From: an uncultured Spirochaetota bacterium
Lineage (GTDB): Bacteria > Spirochaetota > Spirochaetia > SZUA-6 > Fen-1364
Direction: 5' to 3'
DNA: 64,000 bases
Assembly: GCA_963745235.1 (NCBI GenBank)
Contig: CAVUXE010000099.1
Span: 1 to 64,000, forward strand
The notes under the pieces were generated by a model that made no database searches, had not been told where the DNA came from, and saw only the letters and a program-made list of their open reading frames with translations. Numbering within the stretch: the first letter of the stretch is position 1; every line of letters starts with the position of its first letter. Both the position numbers and the translations under genes were made by a program. Positions 7,067-51,178 of the stretch are shown here, piece after piece.

Positions 7067-10008
7067 ATGGCTATCCTTGACACGTGCATCATCACGGCAT
7101 CAGACGACCGGCAGGCAGAAGTCTTCAGGAAGCTCCTGGACCGCCGGATCCAGCGCGGCTTGTATCCGAAGGAAATTGATTTCCGCGTGTATTCAGATCC
7201 TCCCGCCGGGCGCGCAGGATCAGGCGGCGGCACCATCTGGGCTCTCCTGACTCTACTCAGAGAGGAAGGGATGGCTCCGGCAGAAGAGGCAGCATCCCAG
7301 CTTTCTTCGCGGCGAATCCTCGTCATTCATGCCGGCGGTGAGTCCCGCAGGCTGCCCTGCTACGTTCCCGAGGGGAAGCTCTTTGCGCCCGTGCCTGCCC
7401 CCTCCAGCTCGTTCGTCCCGCCCGTTGTGCTGGACGTCGAGCTTTCGCTCTTCCTGCGGTATCCCTGGAGAGACGGCGAGCTCCTGGTCACCTCCGGCGA
7501 CGCCCTCGTTGACTTCAACACCGACCTTCTGAATCTGCCTGAGGGTCCTCTCTGCGGTTTCTCCGCTCCCGAATCTTTCCAACGGGGATCACGGCATGGT
7601 GTGTTCGCTTTTGACCCTGTCACGGGCGCGGTCCGCGACTATCATCAGAAAGCTTCGCCGGAGTTTCTTGCGCGTGAAGCACGGATCGAGGGCACCGAGT
7701 CCTGCGCCGTGGACCTGGGGCCGGTCTCTTTCCGCGGCCAGGCCCTCCGTGCACTCATTGCAAGCGCGGTTCAGCCCCTTCCCGGAGGAAGCATCGCGGA
7801 GCAGGTAGGCGAGGGGACGCTGCCTATAGATCTTTACCTGGAGCTTCTCACGGCATGTCTTGCGGGCCTGGACAAGAAGTCGTACCTGGCCAGGCTCAAG
7901 GGCCGGAGCTCCGCTTCAGCGGAGGTTCTTGAGGTTCTCTTCGAGGCCTTTCACCCCTGCGGGCTTTCCGGGGCCCTGGTCAAGCAGGCTTCTTTCATCC
8001 ATTTCGGAAGCATCGCGGAGTTCCCCCAAGCCTGTCGGGAGCTTCGCGCCGGCGGGCTTCTCCCGTTCTACGCCCTTGCCCATGAAGAGCTGGTCCCGGA
8101 AGCGGGTGCAAGCCTGGTCAGATTCAACTGTCTGGACGCGAAGATCGAGACGGGGTCCGGAGGCTCGTGCATAGAGGATTGCCGAAACGTCACAATCTCC
8201 TGTGAAGGTGAGAATCTGCTGGTTGGCCTCCGACGCCTGGCAATTGACGATGTGTTGCCGCGCGGATTCTGTATCGATGAACGAAGATTTGAAGAACAGG
8301 GAACGCCGGTGACCCTGCGGCTGGTCTACCACAGGGATGACTCGTTCAAGCCGCAGAAAGGTCCGGATTCCCTTGTTTTCTGCGGCCTGCCTTTGAAGGG
8401 GTGGCTGTCTGCACGGAATCTTTGCCTTGATGATGTTTTCCCTTCAGGGCTCCAGACTGGACCTCTATAAGGCGTTGCTGTTCCCTGCAGGAGCTGGCGC
8501 AGAGCAGCTGAAAGGCTACTGGCGGGTGCCTGCGGACAAAGCGGCGTGGGCCGCCTGGTTCCGTTCTTCCCGCAGGTACTGCATCGCCGACGCCAACGCT
8601 CTTACCGATGCAGCGGTCCGGGACCGCGAGCGGGCGGACGCCAGGCGGCATGAAATTTCCCGCGGCCTGGAAAAGGGAGGCTTCTTTGCCGTTCCCGCCT
8701 TGGAGATGGCGGAGCTGGTGGCGGATGGGTTGAACCCGTTGAACCTCGTCACTCGATGCTTGCAGACCGATGAGCCTCTCCTCAAAGCCTACAGGAGCGC
8801 CACGCTGAGGGCGGCGCACGTCAACGGCGTGCCTCCCGTGGACAGGGTGGAGGTACCGTTTGCGCCTCGCGCCGCGGGTGGGCCGCTTCGATGCGCGGTC
8901 AAGCTCGATCAGATTGTGTGGGCGCGCTCACCGGTCCGCCTGGACCTTGCGGGCGGCTGGACCGACACCCCCCCCTACACCAACCGATACGGCGGCGCGG
9001 TGCTGAATGTCGCAGTGGACCTGAACGGCCAGAGTCCCATCCAGGTCTTCGTGCGGCGGACGCCTGAGCCGCGCCTTACGCTGCATTCGATTGACCTTGG
9101 GGTCACGGAAGTCCTTGCTGATACCCGCGGCCTGCGCGCCTACAGGGACCCGGGAAGCCCGTTTGCGCTTCCCCGCGCCGCCCTTGTCCTGCTGGGTCTG
9201 GGCTCAGGGGAGCCTGACGGCGCACCCCTTGCGCCCGCCTTCGAAGCGGCAGGGGGCGGCATGGAGCTCACCCTTCTGTGCGCCGTTCCCAAGGGCTCAG
9301 GTCTCGGCACTTCATCCGTGCTTGCCGGAACCATTCTGGCCGCCCTCGAGCGCTTCTACGGCATGGCGGCGCCGCGGGAGGAGCTTTTCCTGCAGGTCCT
9401 GGAGATCGAGCAGATGCTTACAACGGGTGGCGGCTGGCAGGACCAGATCGGCGGCCTGGTGGGAGGCGTCAAGTACGTCGAGTCCCGGGCCGCCCTGAAG
9501 CCGCGGCCCGTCGTCCGCCAGCTGGATCCGTGGACATTCGAAAGTCCTGAGTGCACGGAGCGGATGACCCTGTTCTATACAGGCGTCACGAGGCTTGCAA
9601 AGGGCATCCTCAAAGACGTTGTAGATCGGGTCAACGGAATGGAAAGATCGTACCTCTTCACGCACAACCGCATCGCGGAGCTTGCAAAGGAGGGAAGCGA
9701 TGCAATCTCGCTCCGCGACCTGGCGGGGCTTTCCCGCGTGATCCGGGAGTCATTCAGGGAGAACATGTTCATTCACCAGAGCACCACGAACGAAGAGATA
9801 GAGGCGGTGATCCAGGCCACATCGCCTTTCTACTCCGGGAATGAAACTCCTCGGGGCCGGCGGGGGAGGGTTCGCGCTCTTTGTCTCTCCGGACGCACCG
9901 AAGGCCCGCCTGCTGCGGTCCCTCCTGGCGGAGCGCTTCGAGAACGAGAGGGCGCGGCTGGTGGATTTTTCCCTCAACAAGCGAGGGTTGGAAGTGACGG
10001 TCAGCTGA
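7067..10008 (+). CDS. fkp: Bifunctional L-fucose-1-P guanylyltransferase / L-fucokinase (Fkp-like); frameshifts ~8440 and ~9840
   Basis: N-terminal DPPAGRAGSGGGT and HAGGESRRLPCY..GKLF; C-terminal SPVRLDLAGGWTDTPPY, PKGSGLGTSS, TTGGGWQDQ. Shifted frame from 9841 reads MKLLGAGGGGF and stops at TGA 10006-10008. Confidence 0.8.
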
Positions 10009-12428
10009 TGCAGGTCACAAGCTCACAGGAACGTCGCCAGGTCAGATCCATTCTCATCTTCTTTGCAATAGTCTTTGTGCTTGGGTGCATCCTGGACTTC
10101 GTCCTGATGAACCGCTACAAGGAAATTGCGCTCGGATCAATGGGAGACCTGCTCATTGACGCTCTGCCACAGGGCAGGGTGTTCCGCGCGGTTCTTTCCT
10201 CCATGGGCTGGTTGGACGCCGTTGTCATTGGCGGCCTCTTCCTTCTTCTCGTCTGGGTCATCGTTACGCAGGTCCGGCACAAGACTCTTTCCACGTTCTG
10301 CGAATGGACCTTAGCCTCCGAGCGGCGCACCAGGCTGGTCATCCTGGGAATGGCCATTCTTCTGCTCAAACCGATTCTGGCCCCCGGGGAGCCGTACTTC
10401 CAAGACGCGCCGAGCCACGTATCCCGGGCGTGGTTCACGTACGTCAACTTCATCCAGGGCTATCTCTTCCCGAGCTTCAATAACTACTACCACGCCGGTT
10501 TCGCGATGTTCTCTCACTATGGCTTCCTGTTCTCCGTCCTGGCGGGCGGACTGAACCTCCTGTTTCGAAACATCTACCTCTCTGTCAAGCTCGTGATGAT
10601 GGCGCTGGGCGTTGCCAGTGCATTCCTGTTCTACGCACTGGGCAAGCAGGTCACAAAGGATCGCGCCAGCGGTCTTCTGCTCTCTCTCATCATCACGGGG
10701 AGCAGCATCTTCATTTCCACGATGTTCTGGGGCGGGGTTCTTTTCTTCCCGCTCATTTTTGCGGGCGCCGGCCTTCTTCTGCTTGCCTTCGAACGATTCC
10801 TGGCAGGCACGTGGCCCCTGTACAGGGCCATCTTCATGACAGCCCTTGCGGCAAACATCCTCATAGCCACTCACCTGGGCTACGCCGCCCAGATCTTCCT
10901 GTTCTTCGTGGTGTACGCGATAGCCCGGCTTGTTTCGGAGAAACCTGAGGCGTGGAAGAGCTTCACCGTATGGGCCGCGGGAAGCCTGGGCATTGCGCTG
11001 GTGCTTTCCGCGTTCGTCGTGCTCCCGACGTTCCTGGACATCAAGGACGTCAACTTTTACAAGGCGTTTCCCTACTCCGACGTGAACACGTACAAGTTCT
11101 GGCATGAGAAGCTGTGGCAGTTGCTCGTTCCGCGACCCTTCTACCTCAACTACCTTGATTACCTGGGCCTTGCGCTCCTGGGGATCGCCGTCTGGCTGGC
11201 AGTATCCGCGGTCCGCCGTCCTGACCGCCGGCTTGCCGCCCATATCGCAACAATCGCTTCAACCATCGTCGTCCTGGGGTACAGCCGCAACTCGATCATC
11301 CTGCTGTTTGCAATCGGGCTGTTTGCTTGCCAGGCCTACGGCGTCCTGGTGACGCAGAGGGACCAGAAGCGCGCCGTTTTTGGCGTGCTGGTGCTGCTTC
11401 TGCTTGCGGACTCGCTTCTGTTCAACAACTTCAACACCTACCGGGATGGCGCGTTTGAGCATCGGCTGTATGACAAGTTGGCACTCGAACCTTGGGGGAC
11501 AAAGCTTGGGGTCGTGAAGGCCAATACCCTTCATGGCGGGAACAAGCCGGACGACAATGTTTACATATCGCCGTGGCTCAAGGTCACGGGCCAGCTTGTC
11601 GTCCAACCGAACGCAATCATGCTGGAGGCAAACAAGCAGGCGCTCTACCAGTTCCTGGCGACCCACGACCTCCTTGGCCAGGACATGCTGAATGGCAGGA
11701 TAACAGTGCCGACTCTGAAGGCGCTGGACCTCGTAGGCGTGCGATACCTGACCTTCCATACCGCGGATGCGTACTACCTGCCACCGGTGGAGTCGGATGG
11801 TCCCGTCATTCGAAACTCCTCGGGCCCGTGGATCGAGCTCCCGGGCACCTTTCCCATGCTCTTCGCGGAGCGCGTGACGAGTTTGAACGATCTGGCGGCC
11901 CAGAACCCCATTCTGGCCTACCGGCAGACCTTTGAAGCTGACGATGTCTCTCACGAGCGCGCCCCACTTCATTACAGGCTGCAGGCGGGAGACTATTTGC
12001 ATAAGCTTGTGGATCTCACCGGACCTTCCCTGGACCGGCCGATTGCGGACCAATTCGTCATGCGGGTTCCGATCACCGAAGATCTCACTTCGCCCGGCCC
12101 GGCGTCTCTGGAAGTATCTTCCTTCTTTGTGGACGCGCAGAAAGTGGTGGCGGATTTCACCACGGACAGGCCTGGATTTGTCAGGATCCCTTTTGGCTGG
12201 TTCCCATGGCACACCATTCGACTGGATGGCGCGCCGGCCGTGGCGTATCCGGACGTAATGAACATGATTTGCGTGCGCGTGGGGGCTCCTGGATCTCATC
12301 ACCTGCAGGTGGGCCCCTCGATCTCTCCAGCAAAGAGGACGGGGGCATGGATTACCGGGCTGAGCTTTGTTCTTTTCGCAGGAATCCTTCTGTTGGCTGA
12401 ATTGATTCGAAAGAAGGACCGTGCCTGA
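10008..12428 (+). CDS. Multi-pass membrane protein, GT-C / YfhO / PTPS-related membrane glycosyltransferase-like
   Basis: Starts MQVTSS at TGATG overlap inside the chimeric ORF 8427-12428. Many TM segments, QDAPSH loop motif, extracytoplasmic C-terminal domain with WFPWH and a final TM. Confidence 0.6.
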   Translation: MQVTSSQERRQVRSILIFFAIVFVLGCILDFVLMNRYKEIALGSMGDLLIDALPQGRVFRAVLSSMGWLDAVVIGGLFLLLVWVIVTQVRHKTLSTFCEWTLASERRTRLVILGMAILLLKPILAPGEPYFQDAPSHVSRAWFTYVNFIQGYLFPSFNNYYHAGFAMFSHYGFLFSVLAGGLNLLFRNIYLSVKLVMMALGVASAFLFYALGKQVTKDRASGLLLSLIITGSSIFISTMFWGGVLFFPLIFAGAGLLLLAFERFLAGTWPLYRAIFMTALAANILIATHLGYAAQIFLFFVVYAIARLVSEKPEAWKSFTVWAAGSLGIALVLSAFVVLPTFLDIKDVNFYKAFPYSDVNTYKFWHEKLWQLLVPRPFYLNYLDYLGLALLGIAVWLAVSAVRRPDRRLAAHIATIASTIVVLGYSRNSIILLFAIGLFACQAYGVLVTQRDQKRAVFGVLVLLLLADSLLFNNFNTYRDGAFEHRLYDKLALEPWGTKLGVVKANTLHGGNKPDDNVYISPWLKVTGQLVVQPNAIMLEANKQALYQFLATHDLLGQDMLNGRITVPTLKALDLVGVRYLTFHTADAYYLPPVESDGPVIRNSSGPWIELPGTFPMLFAERVTSLNDLAAQNPILAYRQTFEADDVSHERAPLHYRLQAGDYLHKLVDLTGPSLDRPIADQFVMRVPITEDLTSPGPASLEVSSFFVDAQKVVADFTTDRPGFVRIPFGWFPWHTIRLDGAPAVAYPDVMNMICVRVGAPGSHHLQVGPSISPAKRTGAWITGLSFVLFAGILLLAELIRKKDRA

Positions 12429-12452
12429 TTCTCGAGCGGGAGGCTCGCGTTC

Positions 12453-12800
12453 TTATCTCCCAAGTACGACATCGATTCCGTGGACGATTTGCGCGAATTG
12501 TTTGGCTGTGAGTCGTCCAACGCGCTCGCTGAGAAACGAACGGTCAACCGCAACGATTTGGGTAGCGTTCGCGACGGCGTCTTTTTTCAAGCCTGTGACC
12601 TTGGCCTGAAGAAGCGTATTACCAGGGGCGTCAGCCCAGACAAGATTACTTGTCAGAGGCACGCACACAACAGTCGCGATGCGGCTCTGATTGAGATGGT
12701 TCCCTTGGACAACGACTACAGGGCGACGAAATCCCGGTTCAGATCCAGCGGGCTCCGGCAGGTCCGCCCACCAGACTTCTCCTTGCGAGACTTCTACCAC
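12453..12800 (-). other. mazF: MazF/PemK family toxin
   Basis: QGEVWWADL.EPAGSEPGFRRPVVVVQ, VPLTSN, ANATQIVAVDR; overlaps antitoxin stop. Confidence 0.9.
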
Positions 12801-13042
12801 TCGGTATGCTCGAACACCCGGCGCACCGCACGGGCGAGAAACGGGTCAGGGCCAGGCTCTCCCAGTTTCTCAACCACGCGATTCATGGCCTCCGTTACCT
12901 CCTCTGGCGTATGTCTCGCCAAGTACTCAGTCAAAGCTTGTGCATAGAGTTGGCTTCGGGGTTTCCGCGTCCTTTTCGCGTATCGTTCTGCAGCGCGGAA
13001 CACATCATCAGGCAGAGACACCGCCGTCTTTGCTTTTTTCAT
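12794..13042 (-). CDS. RHH/CopG-type antitoxin (MazE role); native ATG at 14988-14986 is separated from the body by the group II intron
   Basis: MKKAKTAVSLPDDVFRAAERYAKR..RSQLYAQAL..EW; directly upstream of mazF. Confidence 0.85.
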   Translation of the reverse strand: MKKAKTAVSLPDDVFRAAERYAKRTRKPRSQLYAQALTEYLARHTPEEVTEAMNRVVEKLGEPGPDPFLARAVRRVFEHTEW

Positions 13043-14985
13043 TGGTCGATAGCTGGTGCGGTATCGCTCAGAGCGACCCGTTCCCAGCACCTCCTTTCAA
13101 ACTGTGCGTGCCGTTTTCCGGCACACAGCTTACCGATGAGTTCTCCTGACCGTGCTTGCGCGGAGTGGCTGCCTGGGGATATCGCGTAGTCCCCCTCAGT
13201 CGCTGCAGGCCCATCTCGTACAGGCGTTTCTGGGGCCATCGGTCGAAACGGAAGCGCGTTCGCTGTCCGCCCCGTCGCCACTGCCATTGGAGCACACGGC
13301 CGTACACGTAGTCATCCACTCGGTTGAACTCTCGGTCCGCGTTGCCCGTTCGGAAGTAGTTGCCCCATCCACGAAGCACCGGGTTTAGCTTGTCGATCAG
13401 CTCCCCTATGCCCTTCGCTTGCCTTCCTCGCGCCTCGGTGATCTCATGCACGCGGGATCGGATTCGCTTCATAGCCTTCGGCGACGGCCAGCGCTGCACG
13501 AAATGCCAGCGTGGGTTGCGTTGAATGCTCCTGCACTTGCGCACCGTCCACCCAAGAAACGTAAAGCCCTCCTTACCCAGTGCCAGATTCACTACGCGCG
13601 TTTTCTCGGGATGCATTTCCAGCCCCAGGCGTTCCATCACAATCTTTACGCGCCTGAGGGCTTCCTTGCACTGCGACTTGTTCTTGCACAGCACCACGAA
13701 GTCGTCAGCGTAACGCACCAGGATTCCAAGGTGTTTGCACTTGCTCTCCCAGATGCGATCCAGAAAGCCAAGGTAGATGTTGGACAACAGCGGCGAGATC
13801 ACTCCGCCTTGCGGGGTTCCCGCAAGCGTTTCCCTCACCGTCCCATCTTCCATCACGCCCGCCGCCAGCCACTGACCGATCAGTTTCAGGACTCGCCTGT
13901 CCGAGATCCGCTCCTTCACCAACACCATGAGCTTCCCATGGTCGATGCTTCCGAAGTAATCCCGAATATCGGCGTCCAGCACCCAGTTATGCCCTCGGTT
14001 GCCCGCCTCGCGAATGACTTCCATTGCCTGCGTCGCTCCCCTTCTCGGTCGAAACCCCCAACTGCACGGTTGAAAGTCGGCTTCAAATATGGGTTCGATC
14101 ACCAGCTTGGTTGCCATCTGCACCACGCGATCCCTCACCGTCGGTATCCCCAGCGGCCTCTGCCTCCCGTCCCCCTTGGGGATGTATCGCCGTCTCACCG
14201 GTGACGGTCGATACCTGCCTGCCTTCAGGACGTTCTGTATCTCCTTCAGATACTCTCCCGCCCCTCGCTCTTCGATGTCGCGGATGGACACCTCATCCAC
14301 CCCCGCGGCACCTCCGTTCGCCTTCACCCGTCTCCACGCCTCCAGCAGGACGTCACCCCGCCAGATCCGGTCATACAGCGCGTGAAAACGTCGGCTCCTG
14401 CTCCGCTTGGCACATGTCCATAGCCGTCGCTGGAGTTCTCGCACTTTTTCTTCGGGGTTGTTGGGTCTTTCGACCATGCCCTCGCGCTTACCTCCACGCC
14501 CCAGCACACTCAAAGCAGGGTCCCTTCCCTCCAGCGGCTTCTCACCGCCTTCTCAGGTACTACGAACCCCTCGGACTCCCTCCTGACTCCGCGCGCTTTC
14601 GGTCTCCCCCTTATACGCGTGGTCTTTGCCCGACGTGGGCCGCCAGGGAGGGCCTCTCGTGTTCCCTACCATTCCGTCACAACGTGCCGCCGCCAATACC
14701 CCGAGGGCGTCCAACGTCCACTTCGGATTCGGTCCGTTGTCTGTTGCCTTCGCCGTGGCATGATCGGCTCGGCCACCCTGAACACCTTTCGGCTGATACT
14801 CTGACGAGGCTTGCTCGGCGTTCACTCGCGTTGCGGCCCGCTGTGTTGCTTCCTCCTTGGAGGCTTTTGTCGGTCCGCTCGGTCAGAGACATTTCGGCCT
14901 CTGACTGGACCCTGCTACCGGGCGCTCCGACGCTTACCCGGGCGGAACTTTCATCCGCTGGAACGGTACGGCTTTCACGACGCAC
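13040..14985 (-). mobile_element. Group II intron (about 1946 nt), complete
   Basis: 5' GTGCG at 14985; EBS1 loop CATGCCA (14762-14756); DIII GTAGTACC..GAAG..GGAGGGAAGGGAC; DV TAAGCTGTGTGCCGGAAAACGGCACGCACAGTTTG (13132-13098, AGC triad); DVI with putative branch A at 13046; 3' end ...ACCAATG. Confidence 0.9.
13068..14477 (-). CDS. ltrA: Group II intron reverse transcriptase/maturase without endonuclease domain
   Basis: GAAGVD, YIPK..RPLGIPTVRDRVVQ, GTPQGGVISPLLSNIYL, RYADDF, FLG, LNPVLRGWGNYF (X domain); no HNH; ORF continues through DV. Confidence 0.95.
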   Translation of the reverse strand: MVERPNNPEEKVRELQRRLWTCAKRSRSRRFHALYDRIWRGDVLLEAWRRVKANGGAAGVDEVSIRDIEERGAGEYLKEIQNVLKAGRYRPSPVRRRYIPKGDGRQRPLGIPTVRDRVVQMATKLVIEPIFEADFQPCSWGFRPRRGATQAMEVIREAGNRGHNWVLDADIRDYFGSIDHGKLMVLVKERISDRRVLKLIGQWLAAGVMEDGTVRETLAGTPQGGVISPLLSNIYLGFLDRIWESKCKHLGILVRYADDFVVLCKNKSQCKEALRRVKIVMERLGLEMHPEKTRVVNLALGKEGFTFLGWTVRKCRSIQRNPRWHFVQRWPSPKAMKRIRSRVHEITEARGRQAKGIGELIDKLNPVLRGWGNYFRTGNADREFNRVDDYVYGRVLQWQWRRGGQRTRFRFDRWPQKRLYEMGLQRLRGTTRYPQAATPRKHGQENSSVSCVPENGTHSLKGGAGNGSL

Positions 14986-14994
14986 CATACCATT

Positions 14995-15023
14995 AGTATA
15001 ACCAAGGGATAGACTCCCGACAA
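14995..15023 (-). promoter_or_regulatory. Sigma70-type promoter of mazEF-type operon (leaderless)
   Basis: TTGTCG (15023-15018), 17 nt, TATACT (15000-14995), 6 nt, ATG (14988); imperfect ATAC-N5-GTAT inverted repeat over the start. Confidence 0.65.
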
Positions 15024-15100
15024 GCTGGCAAAAGTGGCCTCAGGTCTTGCGCCTCCACACCAGCTTATTGTGCGCAGGCTGCCGATAACCTCGTCTTCTT

Positions 15101-15490
15101 TCATGGCGATGGAAGGGTTGTTGAAATCGCCAAGTCAGGAATCTGCTTGAAGTGCTCGTCAGAAGAGATGACGGTAGCGCCGGCCCGCATGGCACAACAG
15201 GCAATTACCAAGTCTGTAAGCGGCAGCACAACCCCACGGCGATCCAAAGTCCAGGCAAGATGGGCGGTTTCATCCCACGTTGTGTTGTCTATGTCTACCG
15301 AGATCATTGTTTCAAAGAGCTCACGCATCCTCGCGCGTATCTTTTCACGCACAACGCCGCGGAGCACTTCGCAGCGGATGACGCCGCAGCAAAGGACTTC
15401 TTCATGAAGAAGCCACGGGCGTAAAGCTTGCACTGGATCTTCTCGTGCGCGCAGAAGGCCAATGTAGAAAGTCGAATCGACAAGAAGCAC
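15101..15490 (-). CDS. vapC: VapC PIN-domain toxin
   Basis: LLVDST, EVLRG, DLVIACCA, SSDEHF acidic PIN motifs. Confidence 0.88.
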   Translation of the reverse strand: MLLVDSTFYIGLLRAREDPVQALRPWLLHEEVLCCGVIRCEVLRGVVREKIRARMRELFETMISVDIDNTTWDETAHLAWTLDRRGVVLPLTDLVIACCAMRAGATVISSDEHFKQIPDLAISTTLPSP

Positions 15491-15495
15491 TATGG

Positions 15496-15723
15496 TTACC
15501 CAGCCGGTATTTCCCGCGCGCGCAGCGCGCGAAGGTCGTACCGCGGGTCAACAGCGTTCTCGAGATCTTTGGGAGCCAAGGATGTTGAGAGGAGTTTGTT
15601 GCGCATCGCGCTTCGCTCGGCAGCGCTTAAGGCGTAGTTTAAGGCTTTTGTTTTGGTCTTTATGCCTGTGAGTTTCATGAGCCTTGAAAGCTTCTTCTCG
15701 TCAATCTCTACGGTCATCTTCAT
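15496..15723 (-). CDS. vapB: VapB antitoxin
   Basis: MKMTVEIDEKKL..LTGIKTKTKALNYAL; immediately upstream of vapC. Confidence 0.82.
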   Translation of the reverse strand: MKMTVEIDEKKLSRLMKLTGIKTKTKALNYALSAAERSAMRNKLLSTSLAPKDLENAVDPRYDLRALRAREIPAG

Positions 15724-15729
15724 ACGACT

Positions 15730-15765
15730 ATTATATGGCAAGATGACCCATACGTCAATATGGGT
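15730..15765 (-). promoter_or_regulatory. vapBC promoter with palindromic operator
   Basis: TTGACG (15758-15753), 17 nt, TATAAT (15735-15730), 6 nt, ATG; perfect inverted repeat ACCCATA-N6-TATGGGT (15746-15765) flanks the -35. Confidence 0.75.
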
Positions 15766-15821
15766 AGGCTTGCGTTTGCTTCGGTCTACTTGTCCAGCGG
15801 GCCATGGGCTGTCCATCCAAG

Positions 15822-17036
15822 CTAGGTTTTGCGCCTCCAGACCAGCTTGTTGTACGCAAGCCAGTTGTAGGGTAGGACCAGGAAAATGATGGTCAGGATC
15901 AAGGTTATCTGCCTGACCTCCGTCGTGTTGCCGAATAGCCGTGCGGCAATCCCGACTGTGCAGAACTGAATCACGATCCCGCCTACTGAGAGCAGGTTGA
16001 ACGCGAGGAACTTCTTCACGGTCTGAAGGACTTCTGCGGCCCGCCGCTTCTGGAAAGTCCAGAAGTTGTTCCAGAGAAAATTGTTGATGATCGAGCCTTC
16101 CACGGAAAGTGCCGCTGCCCAGGCCGCTGTCTCGGACGCAAAAGCGAGCCAGTGCCTGGAGGACAGAAAGGCAAACCGCCCCGCCAGCCCTGCCACGAAT
16201 CCCGCCCTTACAAACAACTCAAGAAGAACCGCATTCACGACGAAGCCGGAAACTCCGACCACGCAGAAGCGAATGAAGCGCTTTGTCCTCTCCTCAGAGA
16301 GGCGCAGCCGAAGCGCGGTGCCGAGTATCTCCACGGGGGTCTGCTGGGTCATCTTGCTTTCCCCCGAGTCTCTAGCGCGAAACTGAAGCGGAACCTCGCT
16401 GATCCGGGCTCCAAGGTTGGCCAGGCGAAAAAGCATCTCGATCTTGTAGCCAAACCCGCGGCTTCGGATTGAGCCGAGGTCCAGGCGCCCAAAGGGGCCT
16501 TCCACCCGCGTCGCCTTCAAGCCGGTAGTGGGGTCGGTGACTGTCCAGAATGCGCGCGAAGGAAAGAAGAGTATCAGCCGCGCCAGGAAGCCGCCCGCCC
16601 GGCTGAAAAAAAGCCGCAGCAGGTCCCACCGCTCCGGATAGCCCCCGCCGGGACGCCTGCGCGAGCCCAGCACAAGGTCGGATCCGCCCTCGATCTTCCG
16701 AAGCAGGTCAGGAATGGACTCCGGCGGGTGCTGGGAATCCCCATCGAACTCAATGAGCACGTCCGCGTGCATGTCGTCAATTGCATGCCGGAATCCCTTG
16801 AAGTACGCCGCCCCGATCCCCTCCTTCTTCTCCTCCACAATCAGTTGAATCTGAGGATGCAGCGCCATGGCGCCTCGGACGATCTCTGCCGTCCCGTCCG
16901 GAGAGCTTCCGTCAACAACCAGCAGGGAGCATTCCCAGCCGGTGGCGCTCAGGGCGCAGGCAAGAACCCCCTGGATCGTCGCGTTGATGGACCCGGACTC
17001 GTTATAGGTCGGTATGATGACAACGGCGTGCTTCAT
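15822..17036 (-). CDS. GT2 polyprenol-phosphate glycosyltransferase (DPM1-like) fused to GtrA flippase domain
   Basis: IIPTYNE, VDGSSPDGT, DGDSQH, GSR, DPTTG, GESK; C-terminal RFIRFCVVGVSGFVVN..NNFLWNNFWTF. Confidence 0.85.
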   Translation of the reverse strand: MKHAVVIIPTYNESGSINATIQGVLACALSATGWECSLLVVDGSSPDGTAEIVRGAMALHPQIQLIVEEKKEGIGAAYFKGFRHAIDDMHADVLIEFDGDSQHPPESIPDLLRKIEGGSDLVLGSRRRPGGGYPERWDLLRLFFSRAGGFLARLILFFPSRAFWTVTDPTTGLKATRVEGPFGRLDLGSIRSRGFGYKIEMLFRLANLGARISEVPLQFRARDSGESKMTQQTPVEILGTALRLRLSEERTKRFIRFCVVGVSGFVVNAVLLELFVRAGFVAGLAGRFAFLSSRHWLAFASETAAWAAALSVEGSIINNFLWNNFWTFQKRRAAEVLQTVKKFLAFNLLSVGGIVIQFCTVGIAARLFGNTTEVRQITLILTIIFLVLPYNWLAYNKLVWRRKT

Positions 17037-50749: not shown

Positions 50750-50831
50750 AGAGCGATCTGCTCGCACTGTTGCTGACAATGACCAATTTTCAATTCAGCT
50801 GACTCCTTGCAGCGAGACGACATAGAACGTA

Positions 50832-51178
50832 TGGAGGTGGCGGGAGTCGAACCCGCGTCCTGGAGTGTTGACCAAGAACCTCTACAGGTTTATCCGCCCG
50901 TTAGAACTCGGCGAGAGGTTTGGGAGGCGGCGTCCCGCTTCCCGCCAAAGCCGGCTTTAGTGTCCCCAGGCGCCCGCTGGCATGCGCTCGGGTAAGCCCC
51001 GGTTTGTTACAGGCACCTCCGGATGTTCGGGACCACGCTCCAGAGACCCGTGGCCGCAATTAAGCAGCCAGTGCGAAATCTGCGTTATTGGCAGTTGTGT
51101 TTTTGCCATTTTTAGGAGACTGGCGCTCCACCTGCAGCCCATGGCCGAACCGACCCCAGTCGAGACCGTTGCACCCCC
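50832..51178 (-). ncRNA. ssrA: tmRNA; tag (A)ANNADFALAA at 51092-51060
   Basis: 5' GGGGGTGCAACGGTCTCGAC; 3' GGACGCGGGTTCGACTCCCGCCACCTCCA; tag ORF ending LAA-TAA; adjacent to smpB. Confidence 0.95.

Follow-up and report, generated by a model that had tools for sequence, protein, structure and literature searches.

Why should a group II intron sit between the start codon and the body of an antitoxin gene? We addressed this question for a 64,000-nucleotide stretch of DNA (hereafter the window; contig CAVUXE010000099.1 of assembly GCA_963745235.1) from an uncultured Spirochaetota bacterium, in which such an intron follows directly after the ATG of a mazE-type antitoxin gene of a toxin–antitoxin (TA) operon. 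Spliceosomal introns are presumed to descend from group II introns, which also serve as programmable tools for gene targeting. An original prediction made on this locus held that the intron possibly gates expression of the TA pair: RNA from the TA promoter could not be spliced, and read-through from an upstream vapBC operon could. We reached a different answer. The element is very probably an active group II intron without an endonuclease, belonging to a lineage whose homing is specialised for the DNA signature that marks leaderless genes. For the TA insertion the best reading is cognate, selfish homing, and not a device that evolved to serve the TA pair.

The landing site is shared across the intron lineage

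We searched with the intron-encoded reverse transcriptase (RT) and obtained 232 relatives, from which 80 loci were kept. Intron ends were anchored by nhmmer, which gave a 5' match in 49 of 82 loci and a 3' match in 69, of which 35 distinct ones reached the end of the element. The window and all the 49 loci with a 5' match provided 50 distinct 5' junctions. ATG directly preceded the intron at 43 of these, and G was present at position −1 in all 50. A hexamer of the form TANNNT was located 4–10 nt upstream at 46 junctions, with a spacer of 6 in 31, and a Shine-Dalgarno (SD)-like word was found at one. Among control ATGs of the same loci, TANNNT occurred in the 4–10 nt range at 109 of 4061 (2.7%), and at spacers of 6–7 at 0.7%.

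At the 3' junctions the intron ended in ATG in 31 of 35 cases, in ACG in three (one transposase family) and in ATT in one (the C54 copy of this genome). A terminal AUG in frame with the host open reading frame (ORF) is thus a conserved feature of the lineage, which points to selection for a start codon at this junction. Past the 3' junctions we observed 29 ORFs of at least 60 codons, 18 of them with Pfam matches (E ≤ 1e-5). Their families are unrelated (SRAP, epimerases, class IV aminotransferase, MscS, CarD, GH3, TgpA, radical SAM, AhpC/TSA, transposases and others), and several of the profiles begin at residues 1–6, SRAP for example covering residues 1–211 on profile positions 1–214. The hosts are metagenome-assembled genomes (MAGs) labelled Spirochaetota, Bryobacterales/Terriglobia (Acidobacteriota), Planctomycetota, Actinomycetota, Steroidobacteraceae and others, as well as Conexibacter and Engelhardtia genomes. 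More distant RT relatives (∼45–55% identity, mostly Bacillota, 28 loci) have 3' ends of the type CUACUCUAU without AUG; they gave no usable 5' match and were excluded from the junction counts as a different lineage.

The ACG-ending sub-lineage (L011, L013 and L015) was found in three different MAGs, behind the ATG of a small transposase-like ORF (MRNLVILF...) that is the same in all three. The insertions at sites other than ATG (L026, L027, L036, L037, L072 and L032/L033) keep the hexamer at the usual distance, and some of them have altered intron 5' ends (GTACG, GCGCG). The downstream ORFs of L037 and L072 still resemble real signal-peptide proteins (DUF3738 and LolA_like matches); such host genes would either be silenced or have to start from the intron-borne ATG.

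In some relatives the intron tail itself resembles the target. Of 28 distinct tails, 12 have TANNNT 6–7 nt before the terminal AUG, and all 12 come from subfamilies of the Acidobacteriota type (L007, L008, L010, L014, L023, L026, L037, L038, L046, L066, L072 and L083). Such tails (TAAAAT-CTACCA-ATG, for example, on the 3' strand of domain VI) mimic the −10/ATG geometry of the target. No TANNNT was seen 5–8 nt before the terminal ATG among the tails of the window's subfamily.

Proposed pairing of the intron with the −10 box and the start codon

The two exon-binding sites (EBS) of the intron offer an explanation for this choice of target. EBS2 is a 5-mer of the form A-N-N-N-U in an internal loop and complements the last five bases of the −10 hexamer, while the invariant CAU of EBS1 complements the AUG start codon. 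Both loops are unpaired in the consensus fold of domain I (D1). Among 42 sites, EBS2 and the −10 box paired perfectly (5/5) at 24 and at 4/5 or better at 37. The mean was 4.38, compared with 3.75 in 2000 shuffles (maximum 4.05), none of which reached the observed value. Nine different EBS2 words agree with their targets, and the sets include AGUAU with ATACT, AGUGU with ACACT, AUUUU with AAAAT or AGAAT, AUCGU with ACGAT, AUGAU with ATCGT, and AUUAU with ATAAT or ATGAT. The ACG-ending sub-lineage has EBS2 AUCGU or AUUGU, matching TACGAT or TAAGAT. Positions 4–6 of EBS1 also follow exon positions −4 to −6, with 2.12 of 3 matches against 1.70 after shuffling (0 of 2000 shuffles reached the observed value; n = 43).

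By complementarity, the −10 box is a promoter element and the putative intron-binding site 2 (IBS2) at once, and (NNN)ATG is the putative IBS1. The lineage-wide A...U and CAU would hold the intron on promoter-plus-start signatures. As IBS2 is the −10 box, it would not be transcribed from the invaded promoter.

We then asked how often such a motif marks a real gene start. The genome has 28 unoccupied TAYACT-N6-ATG sites; 19 are followed by ORFs of at least 60 codons, and 15 of those have Pfam matches. About 12 of the 28 start at the N-terminus of a Pfam profile (MFS, PIN_4, alpha/beta hydrolase, Fe-ADH, nucleoside hydrolase, HTH_17, GH1, ProC and others), so that roughly half of the motif sites are true gene starts. 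With this base rate, base pairing alone suffices to reach real gene starts, and the proposition that it could not explain them was rejected.

The base rate also bears on the idea that promoter melting aids target choice, the intron ribonucleoprotein reverse-splicing into the non-template strand opened by RNA polymerase or transcription. The region melted in open complexes covers the −10 box to the start, which is exactly what the target spans, and the first T of the hexamer is conserved at 46 of 50 junctions though a 5-nt EBS2 does not pair with it. Endonuclease-less introns are also described as preferring single-stranded DNA (PMC7306698, PMC8914252; these and all papers cited below are represented by excerpts). 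However, true starts at the unoccupied sites (∼12/28) are close in frequency to those at the occupied ones (18/29 with Pfam matches), and no extra mechanism is needed. Help from melting is possible but not required, and as an explanation of the target choice we consider it quite unlikely.

The native promoter and start of the antitoxin gene

The original prediction had placed TTGTCG-17-TATACT 6 nt before the native ATG and found no SD sequence there. Coordinates and sequence were both confirmed, and the intron and MazF are real. The spacer between TATACT and ATG reads AATGGT, the intron begins with GTGCG at 14985, and none of GGAG, GAGG or AGGA is present within the 13 nt before the ATG. The promoter scores 9 of 12 consensus matches and is one of two promoter-like sites in 12300–16000 (0.9 ± 0.9 in shuffles).

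Three intron-less paralogs from related genomes of the same family carry TTGACA or TTGACG, 17 nt, TATACT or TATACC, and N6-ATG AAG ACT GCA (MKTAISLP...). As they keep the promoter and the ATG, the promoter and the native start are confirmed. Judging from these paralogs, the ancestral state of the antitoxin family has a promoter close to consensus, the −10 box 6 nt before ATG and no ribosome-binding site. The alternative that TATACT is only an IBS2 and not a promoter element was rejected on the same ground: intron-less paralogs keep TTGACA-17-TATACT-N6-ATG, and both roles apply. Intron-less TA paralogs were present in 4 of 24 other genomes of the family, at 68–79% DNA identity; the orthologous mazE locus, with or without the intron, was not found in these 24 genomes.

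We also surveyed the genome of the window (5.85 Mb, 61% GC). Upstream of the ATG of ORFs of at least 150 codons, TANNNT peaks at spacers of 6 and 7 nt (184 and 185 occurrences, respectively, versus ∼90 elsewhere), a twofold excess. This peak indicates that leaderless genes exist in this genome, as a minority. From the −10 box 6 nt upstream, the lack of an SD sequence, the conservation in paralogs and the genome-wide peak, we infer that mazE is transcribed as a leaderless mRNA. The expectation of a 5' exon consisting of AUG only is therefore supported, as the same geometry recurs in the intron-less paralogs and in the genome-wide peak.

From the −10 box to the start codon runs an imperfect palindrome, ATACYA-N-TGGTAT (ATACT-AAA-AGTAT in L088), which is present in the window (14986–15000, minus strand) and in the intron-less paralogs L086, L088 and L089. 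It is probably the operator of the antitoxin. One arm falls on IBS2 of the intron and the other on IBS1.

The intron, its RNA features and the favoured boundary

The features of the locus are collected in Table 1. The element has the 5' GUGYG, the ribozyme domains including domain V (DV) and a domain VI (DVI) with a bulged A, and an RT with a maturase (X) domain, which together characterise group II introns. The structures closest to the RT in the PDB are group II intron RTs (7uim, 9e-61; 6ar1, 4.3e-55). In its 469 residues only RVT_1 and GIIM were detected at E ≤ 0.01, and no endonuclease domain. The D1 consensus fold of 16 introns contains 106 pairs, 41 of them compensatory. In the DV/DVI fold 13 of 25 pairs are compensatory, and the DV loop is GAAAA or GAAAU in 14 of 14 aligned introns. 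This 5-nt loop in place of a tetraloop is a feature of class IIE/IIF introns in the account of PMC3753933, and with its long DVI the intron has IIE/IIF-like RNA features.

Table 1. Features of the antitoxin locus, in window coordinates (used throughout); all lie on the minus strand
Feature	Coordinates	Strand	Basis or remark
vapBC promoter-like site TTGACG-17-TATAAT	15730..15758	-	consensus scan, 11/12 matches
vapB antitoxin	15496..15723	-	VapB_antitoxin 1.5e-5
vapC PIN-domain toxin	15101..15490	-	PIN 3.3e-13
-35 hexamer TTGTCG of mazE-type promoter	15018..15023	-	consensus scan; TTGACA/TTGACG at the equivalent place in intron-less paralogs
-10 hexamer TATACT	14995..15000	-	last 5 nt (ATACT) would double as IBS2 of the intron
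Native antitoxin start ATG	14986..14988	-	last 3 nt of putative IBS1 (TGGTATG); entire 5' exon if leaderless
Group II intron, 1946 nt, GTGCG...CGACCAATG	13040..14985	-	boundary ambiguous by 0-3 nt, ATG at both ends
Domain I segment, Rfam group-II-D1D4-4 (RF02003)	14826..14960	-	96 bits, E 4.6e-20
EBS2 candidate AGUAU	14796..14800	-	unpaired in D1 consensus fold; complements ATACT of the -10 box
EBS1 candidate CAUGCCA in 9-nt hairpin loop	14756..14762	-	complements UGGUAUG; UCAU invariant in 16/16 aligned introns
Intron-encoded RT/maturase, 469 aa, YADD	13068..14477	-	RVT_1 5.6e-37, GIIM 3.7e-17
Domain V (AGC triad, 5-nt loop GAAAA)	13098..13131	-	covarying fold
Long two-part domain VI	13044..13094	-	outer and inner helices covary; basal GG/CC pairing proposed by hand
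Candidate branch point, bulged A	13046	-	7th nt from 3' end, in conserved CUACC/CGACC
Intron-borne terminal AUG	13040..13042	-	in frame with antitoxin codon 2
Antitoxin body (ribbon-helix-helix type), codon 2 to stop	12794..13039	-	weak RHH_5 match; paralog comparison
mazF/pemK toxin gene	12453..12800	-	PemK_toxin 4.6e-24; GTG start overlaps antitoxin stop

The ATG on both sides leaves an ambiguity of 0–3 nt in the boundary. We favour a boundary after the G of ATG, the 3' end of the element being CCAATG at 13040, for four reasons. EBS1 pairs with the exon from the G at −1 in the upstream direction. With the G counted as intronic, and only then, the bulged A at 13046, above two invariant G–C pairs, is the seventh nucleotide from the end. 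The C54 copy (L003) ends in ATT, and in its host the reading frame is open only when it starts at the upstream ATG. Finally, the base after ATG shows a subfamily-specific bias, being A in the window's subfamily and mostly C or T in the others.

An intron placed inside the start codon (AT/G) would begin with GGUGCG and end with ...CCAAU, its last two bases and the exon G making up the downstream ATG. This placement would supply the canonical AY end, which the after-G boundary lacks. It would accommodate the invariant G at −1 (50/50), the TTGCG (L030/L031, two copies at different sites) and TCGCG (L067) variants would start with G, and the ACG sub-lineage would end in AC. The same four observations speak against it, and we regard it as somewhat unlikely. 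The ligated exon sequence is identical under either boundary.

Copies, mobility and RNA

The genome has three copies of the intron. Relative to that in the window, one shows a single mismatch in 1952 aligned nt and the other six mismatches and one gap in 1961. All three follow TAYACT-N6-ATG. The second host is an NAD-dependent epimerase gene (MKALFIGGTG...), with the intron after the ATG and the Epimerase profile starting from residue 4; the third is a 149-codon membrane-like ORF, again with the intron after the ATG. These two insertions are preceded by TACACT or TATACT plus 6 nt. Differing flanks argue against segmental duplication as the source of the copies.

RNA evidence was taken from contigs of four peat metatranscriptome runs, which cover the intron (runs X5–X7, at <0.1 of words, were left out); such contigs cannot show RNA ends, strand or level. 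A 642-nt contig from X2 runs from the 3' end of the intron into 49 nt that are identical to those directly following the ATG of proC. The proC site in the assembly (contig C18, L091) is empty and reads TACACT-CCTTCC-ATG. The insertion is therefore polymorphic in the population, and represents a fourth landing on a like site. Near-identical copies and this polymorphism imply recent mobility.

Only two sites in the genome match the EBS words perfectly, the mazE promoter (ATACT-AA-TGGTATG) and C54 (ATACT-CC-TGGTATG), and the intron is present at each of them. The match is poorer at the epimerase and proC sites. Occupied perfect sites together with poorer-matching extra sites form the usual pattern of homing with rarer ectopic insertion. 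It is the perfect match of the mazE promoter that leads us to read the TA insertion as cognate homing.

At the antitoxin itself, a 209-nt contig spans the unspliced 3' junction (12899–13107), and mazF coverage was not found in the four contig sets. RNA contigs from X1, X3 and X4 match the intron up to 14838 and then share a different sequence. Their probable source is a related variant of the intron in which part of domain I has diverged.

Several observations weigh against the reading of a lineage that homes on leaderless starts. No spliced joint was seen in the four contig sets; the unspliced contig is the only junction evidence, and the RNA library may contain DNA. Leaderless transcription is deduced from sequence geometry and comparison, not from a mapped start. 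Many of the surveyed sites belong to few multi-copy intron families, and their counts are not independent. Seven of the 50 5' junctions lack ATG (GCG, GGG twice, ACG twice, GTG and AGG), spacers of 7–10 nt at some sites misfit a rigid IBS2–IBS1 geometry, and pairing does not account for the first T of the hexamer. Five of the 42 EBS2 extractions were mis-anchored and were kept in the pairing test, which makes it conservative. The 3'-terminal G is non-canonical, and the variants beginning with TTGCG or TCGCG suit a boundary one base to the left. An assignment to class E or F draws on two RNA features and not on phylogeny.

Consequences for the toxin–antitoxin operon

By gene content the operon is of the type II MazEF-like kind, with a PemK/MazF-fold toxin directly 3' of a small DNA-binding antitoxin. 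The antitoxin has 82 residues, in the frame AAA AAA GCA AAG ACG... after the last ATG of the intron. Its RHH_5 match is weak (0.0018, under the Pfam cut-off), and it is 49–55% identical to MazF-adjacent antitoxins of related genomes. The MazF/PemK ORF is intact.

We propose the following course of events. EBS2 (AGUAU here) would pair with the last five bases of the −10 hexamer and EBS1 (CAU-N-N-C; CAUGCCA here) with the 6–7 bases ending in ATG, so that the intron lands directly after the ATG. RNA from the invaded promoter would then carry only AUG as its 5' exon, pppAUG-intron-AUG-AAA..., without IBS2 and half of IBS1. Either the intron splices with a 3-bp contact, restoring pppAUG-AAA..., or it depends on transcripts that read through from vapBC. 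At the 3' end of the intron the conserved in-frame AUG, which in the window has no SD sequence, may be a fallback or an aid for expression of the host gene. mazE, mazF and the intron RT would all be placed under the TA promoter and upstream read-through. Promoters of type II TA systems are typically autoregulated, and the intron and its RT are presumably expressed from such a promoter, as judged from what is known of the family.

On the transcription inputs the original prediction fared well. Read-through from the co-oriented vapBC is possible, since no terminator-like site is predicted on the minus strand between vapBC and the mazE promoter. The RT necessarily depends on host promoters. An independent antitoxin promoter in the 3' region of the intron, which would speak against gating, was looked for on the minus strand over 13040–14985, and none was found at the scan threshold.

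The statement that RNA from the TA promoter could not splice is too strong, as the three AUG/CAU pairs beside the splice site remain. Splicing with a 3-nt exon is not forbidden for two further reasons: the ACG-ending sub-lineage (3/35) can express its host gene only by splicing, and IIE/IIF introns self-splice without EBS2–IBS2, this pairing being dispensable in vitro (PMC3753933).

The predicted imbalance between antitoxin and MazF upon loss or silencing of the intron found no support. As the two genes form one operon 3' of the intron and their translation is linked, the intron should scale both.

Thus, of the proposed gating, the promoter geometry, the terminal AUG (conserved in the lineage) and the possible read-through stand, and its specificity for the TA pair does not. 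An intron retained as a switch, acting by transcript origin and splicing, would be in keeping with the promoter/ATG geometry and the palindrome-like ATACTA-N-TGGTAT kept in paralogs, with derepression of the intron and RT together with the operon, and with the unspliced junction contig in the RNA library. However, the same intron occurs in an epimerase gene, a membrane-protein ORF and proC, and its relatives are in at least 18 unrelated Pfam-identifiable genes. Three TA paralogs have no intron, no intron-containing mazE ortholog was present in the 24 other genomes of the family, and with both TA genes 3' of the intron no imbalance is predicted. We consider such a switch very unlikely.

Could the insertion instead silence the operon? 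Here no useful splicing would take place from a 3-nt exon, mazEF would be off from its own promoter and the module would be decaying. The lack of a spliced joint in the four RNA contig sets and the internal AUG without SD sequence are consistent with this, and the relatives L026, L027, L037 and L072, with a degenerate 5' ATG or with GTACG/GCGCG ends, have already lost the upstream start. On the other hand, the antitoxin and MazF ORFs are intact, though with an insertion as recent as the near-identical copies and the polymorphism indicate, decay could not yet show. The ACG-ending introns in transposase genes imply functional splicing from sites of this kind. On balance, silencing is unlikely.

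Taken as a whole, the extended scheme, in which a clade spanning several phyla homes on a −10 box plus ATG, splices from a pppAUG exon or uses its terminal AUG, and here is coupled to TA derepression, is put forward tentatively, its parts together being somewhat less probable than not.

An open frame of 103 codons (14677–14988, minus strand) starts at the leaderless ATG and extends into domain I of the ribozyme. If ribosomes load on a leaderless transcript that has not been spliced, translation would proceed across the EBS region.

Relation to known group II introns

An association with start or stop codons is already in print for the IIB1 clade of Avi.groEL and EcKTE56.groEL (Michel, Costa, Doucet & Ferat 2007, as reported in PMC12584367). 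Like the present introns, that clade is a monophyletic lineage tied to start or stop codons and not to a single gene, and a functional codon is restored at the junction upon insertion (TAA becoming TAG in that clade, ATG in the present lineage). It has a CL1 RT with endonuclease, a domain I insertion of 300–700 nt and proteobacterial housekeeping hosts, none of which applies to the window intron. No C-terminal endonuclease domain of the CL1 kind was detected in the RT, and no insertion is present at the base of domain I, where the D1 basal helix closes at alignment columns 9–13/345–349 with a 5-nt gap before the next helix (column 19). The present lineage further differs in its 5-nt DV loop, in having hosts in several phyla and in a target that includes the −10 promoter box.

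The class E/F introns Cl.be.I2, Pe.th.I2 and Ge.ur.I1-1 (Nagy et al. 2013, PMC3753933) share the 5-nt DV loop and, in IIF, the long structured DVI. They also have EBS1 and EBS2 in DId, and their EBS2–IBS2 pairing is suggested to serve retrohoming only. Splicing without EBS2–IBS2 is what a leaderless transcript without IBS2 would need. Start codons, promoters and a terminal AUG go unmentioned in the excerpted text of that paper.

Targeting of a generic signal is known for class C (IIC) introns, which likewise use a genome-wide regulatory signal with a very short IBS1 (3–4 nt; PMC12584367, PMC7306698), have many dispersed sites and may spread across taxa. However, IIC introns recognise a DNA hairpin (terminators, attC) and have no EBS2, whereas the present lineage would base-pair EBS2 to a promoter hexamer. 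The window intron also has an AGC DV that is not of the IIC type, and sits at the start of a transcription unit, not at its end. RmInt1 (class D, Sinorhizobium meliloti; PMC8914252, PMC4075523) resembles it in an endonuclease-less RT and in target recognition by EBS1 and EBS2. RmInt1 homes to an insertion sequence and not to a promoter/start signature, and no terminal AUG is described for it in the excerpts.

In full-text searches of the literature we came across no paper connecting group II introns with leaderless starts, with −10 boxes as IBS2 or with a terminal AUG. The excerpts of PMC4424553, PMC7306698, PMC8919778 and PMC3753933 contain nothing on these three points. A generic regulatory signature as target would be a second example after the terminator-seeking IIC introns, and would let an intron find many safe, expressed landing sites in different genomes and phyla. 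It poses the question of whether a group II intron can splice with a 5' exon of just pppAUG and its IBS2 untranscribed. For annotation, it would explain start codons that seem to lie inside intron RNA. It would also predict which leaderless genes (TA antitoxins in many cases) are open to invasion. If true, a home site at a mazE-type antitoxin promoter/operator couples expression of the intron and RT to TA derepression.

Neighbouring features

The vapB gene next door has a leaderless geometry too, TTGACG-17-TATAAT-AGTCGT-ATG, with the −10 box 6 nt before the ATG (15723). This start (15723–15758, minus strand) matches EBS2 of the intron at four of five positions and is an unoccupied potential target. 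Elsewhere in the window, a tmRNA gene was identified at 50829–51178 (minus strand; Rfam RF00023, 146 bits). On the other side of the TA operon lies a 1333-codon ORF (8427–12428, plus strand), which by eye has a kinase-type N-terminal part and a long multi-pass membrane part. Its stop is convergent with that of mazF, at a distance of 25 nt.

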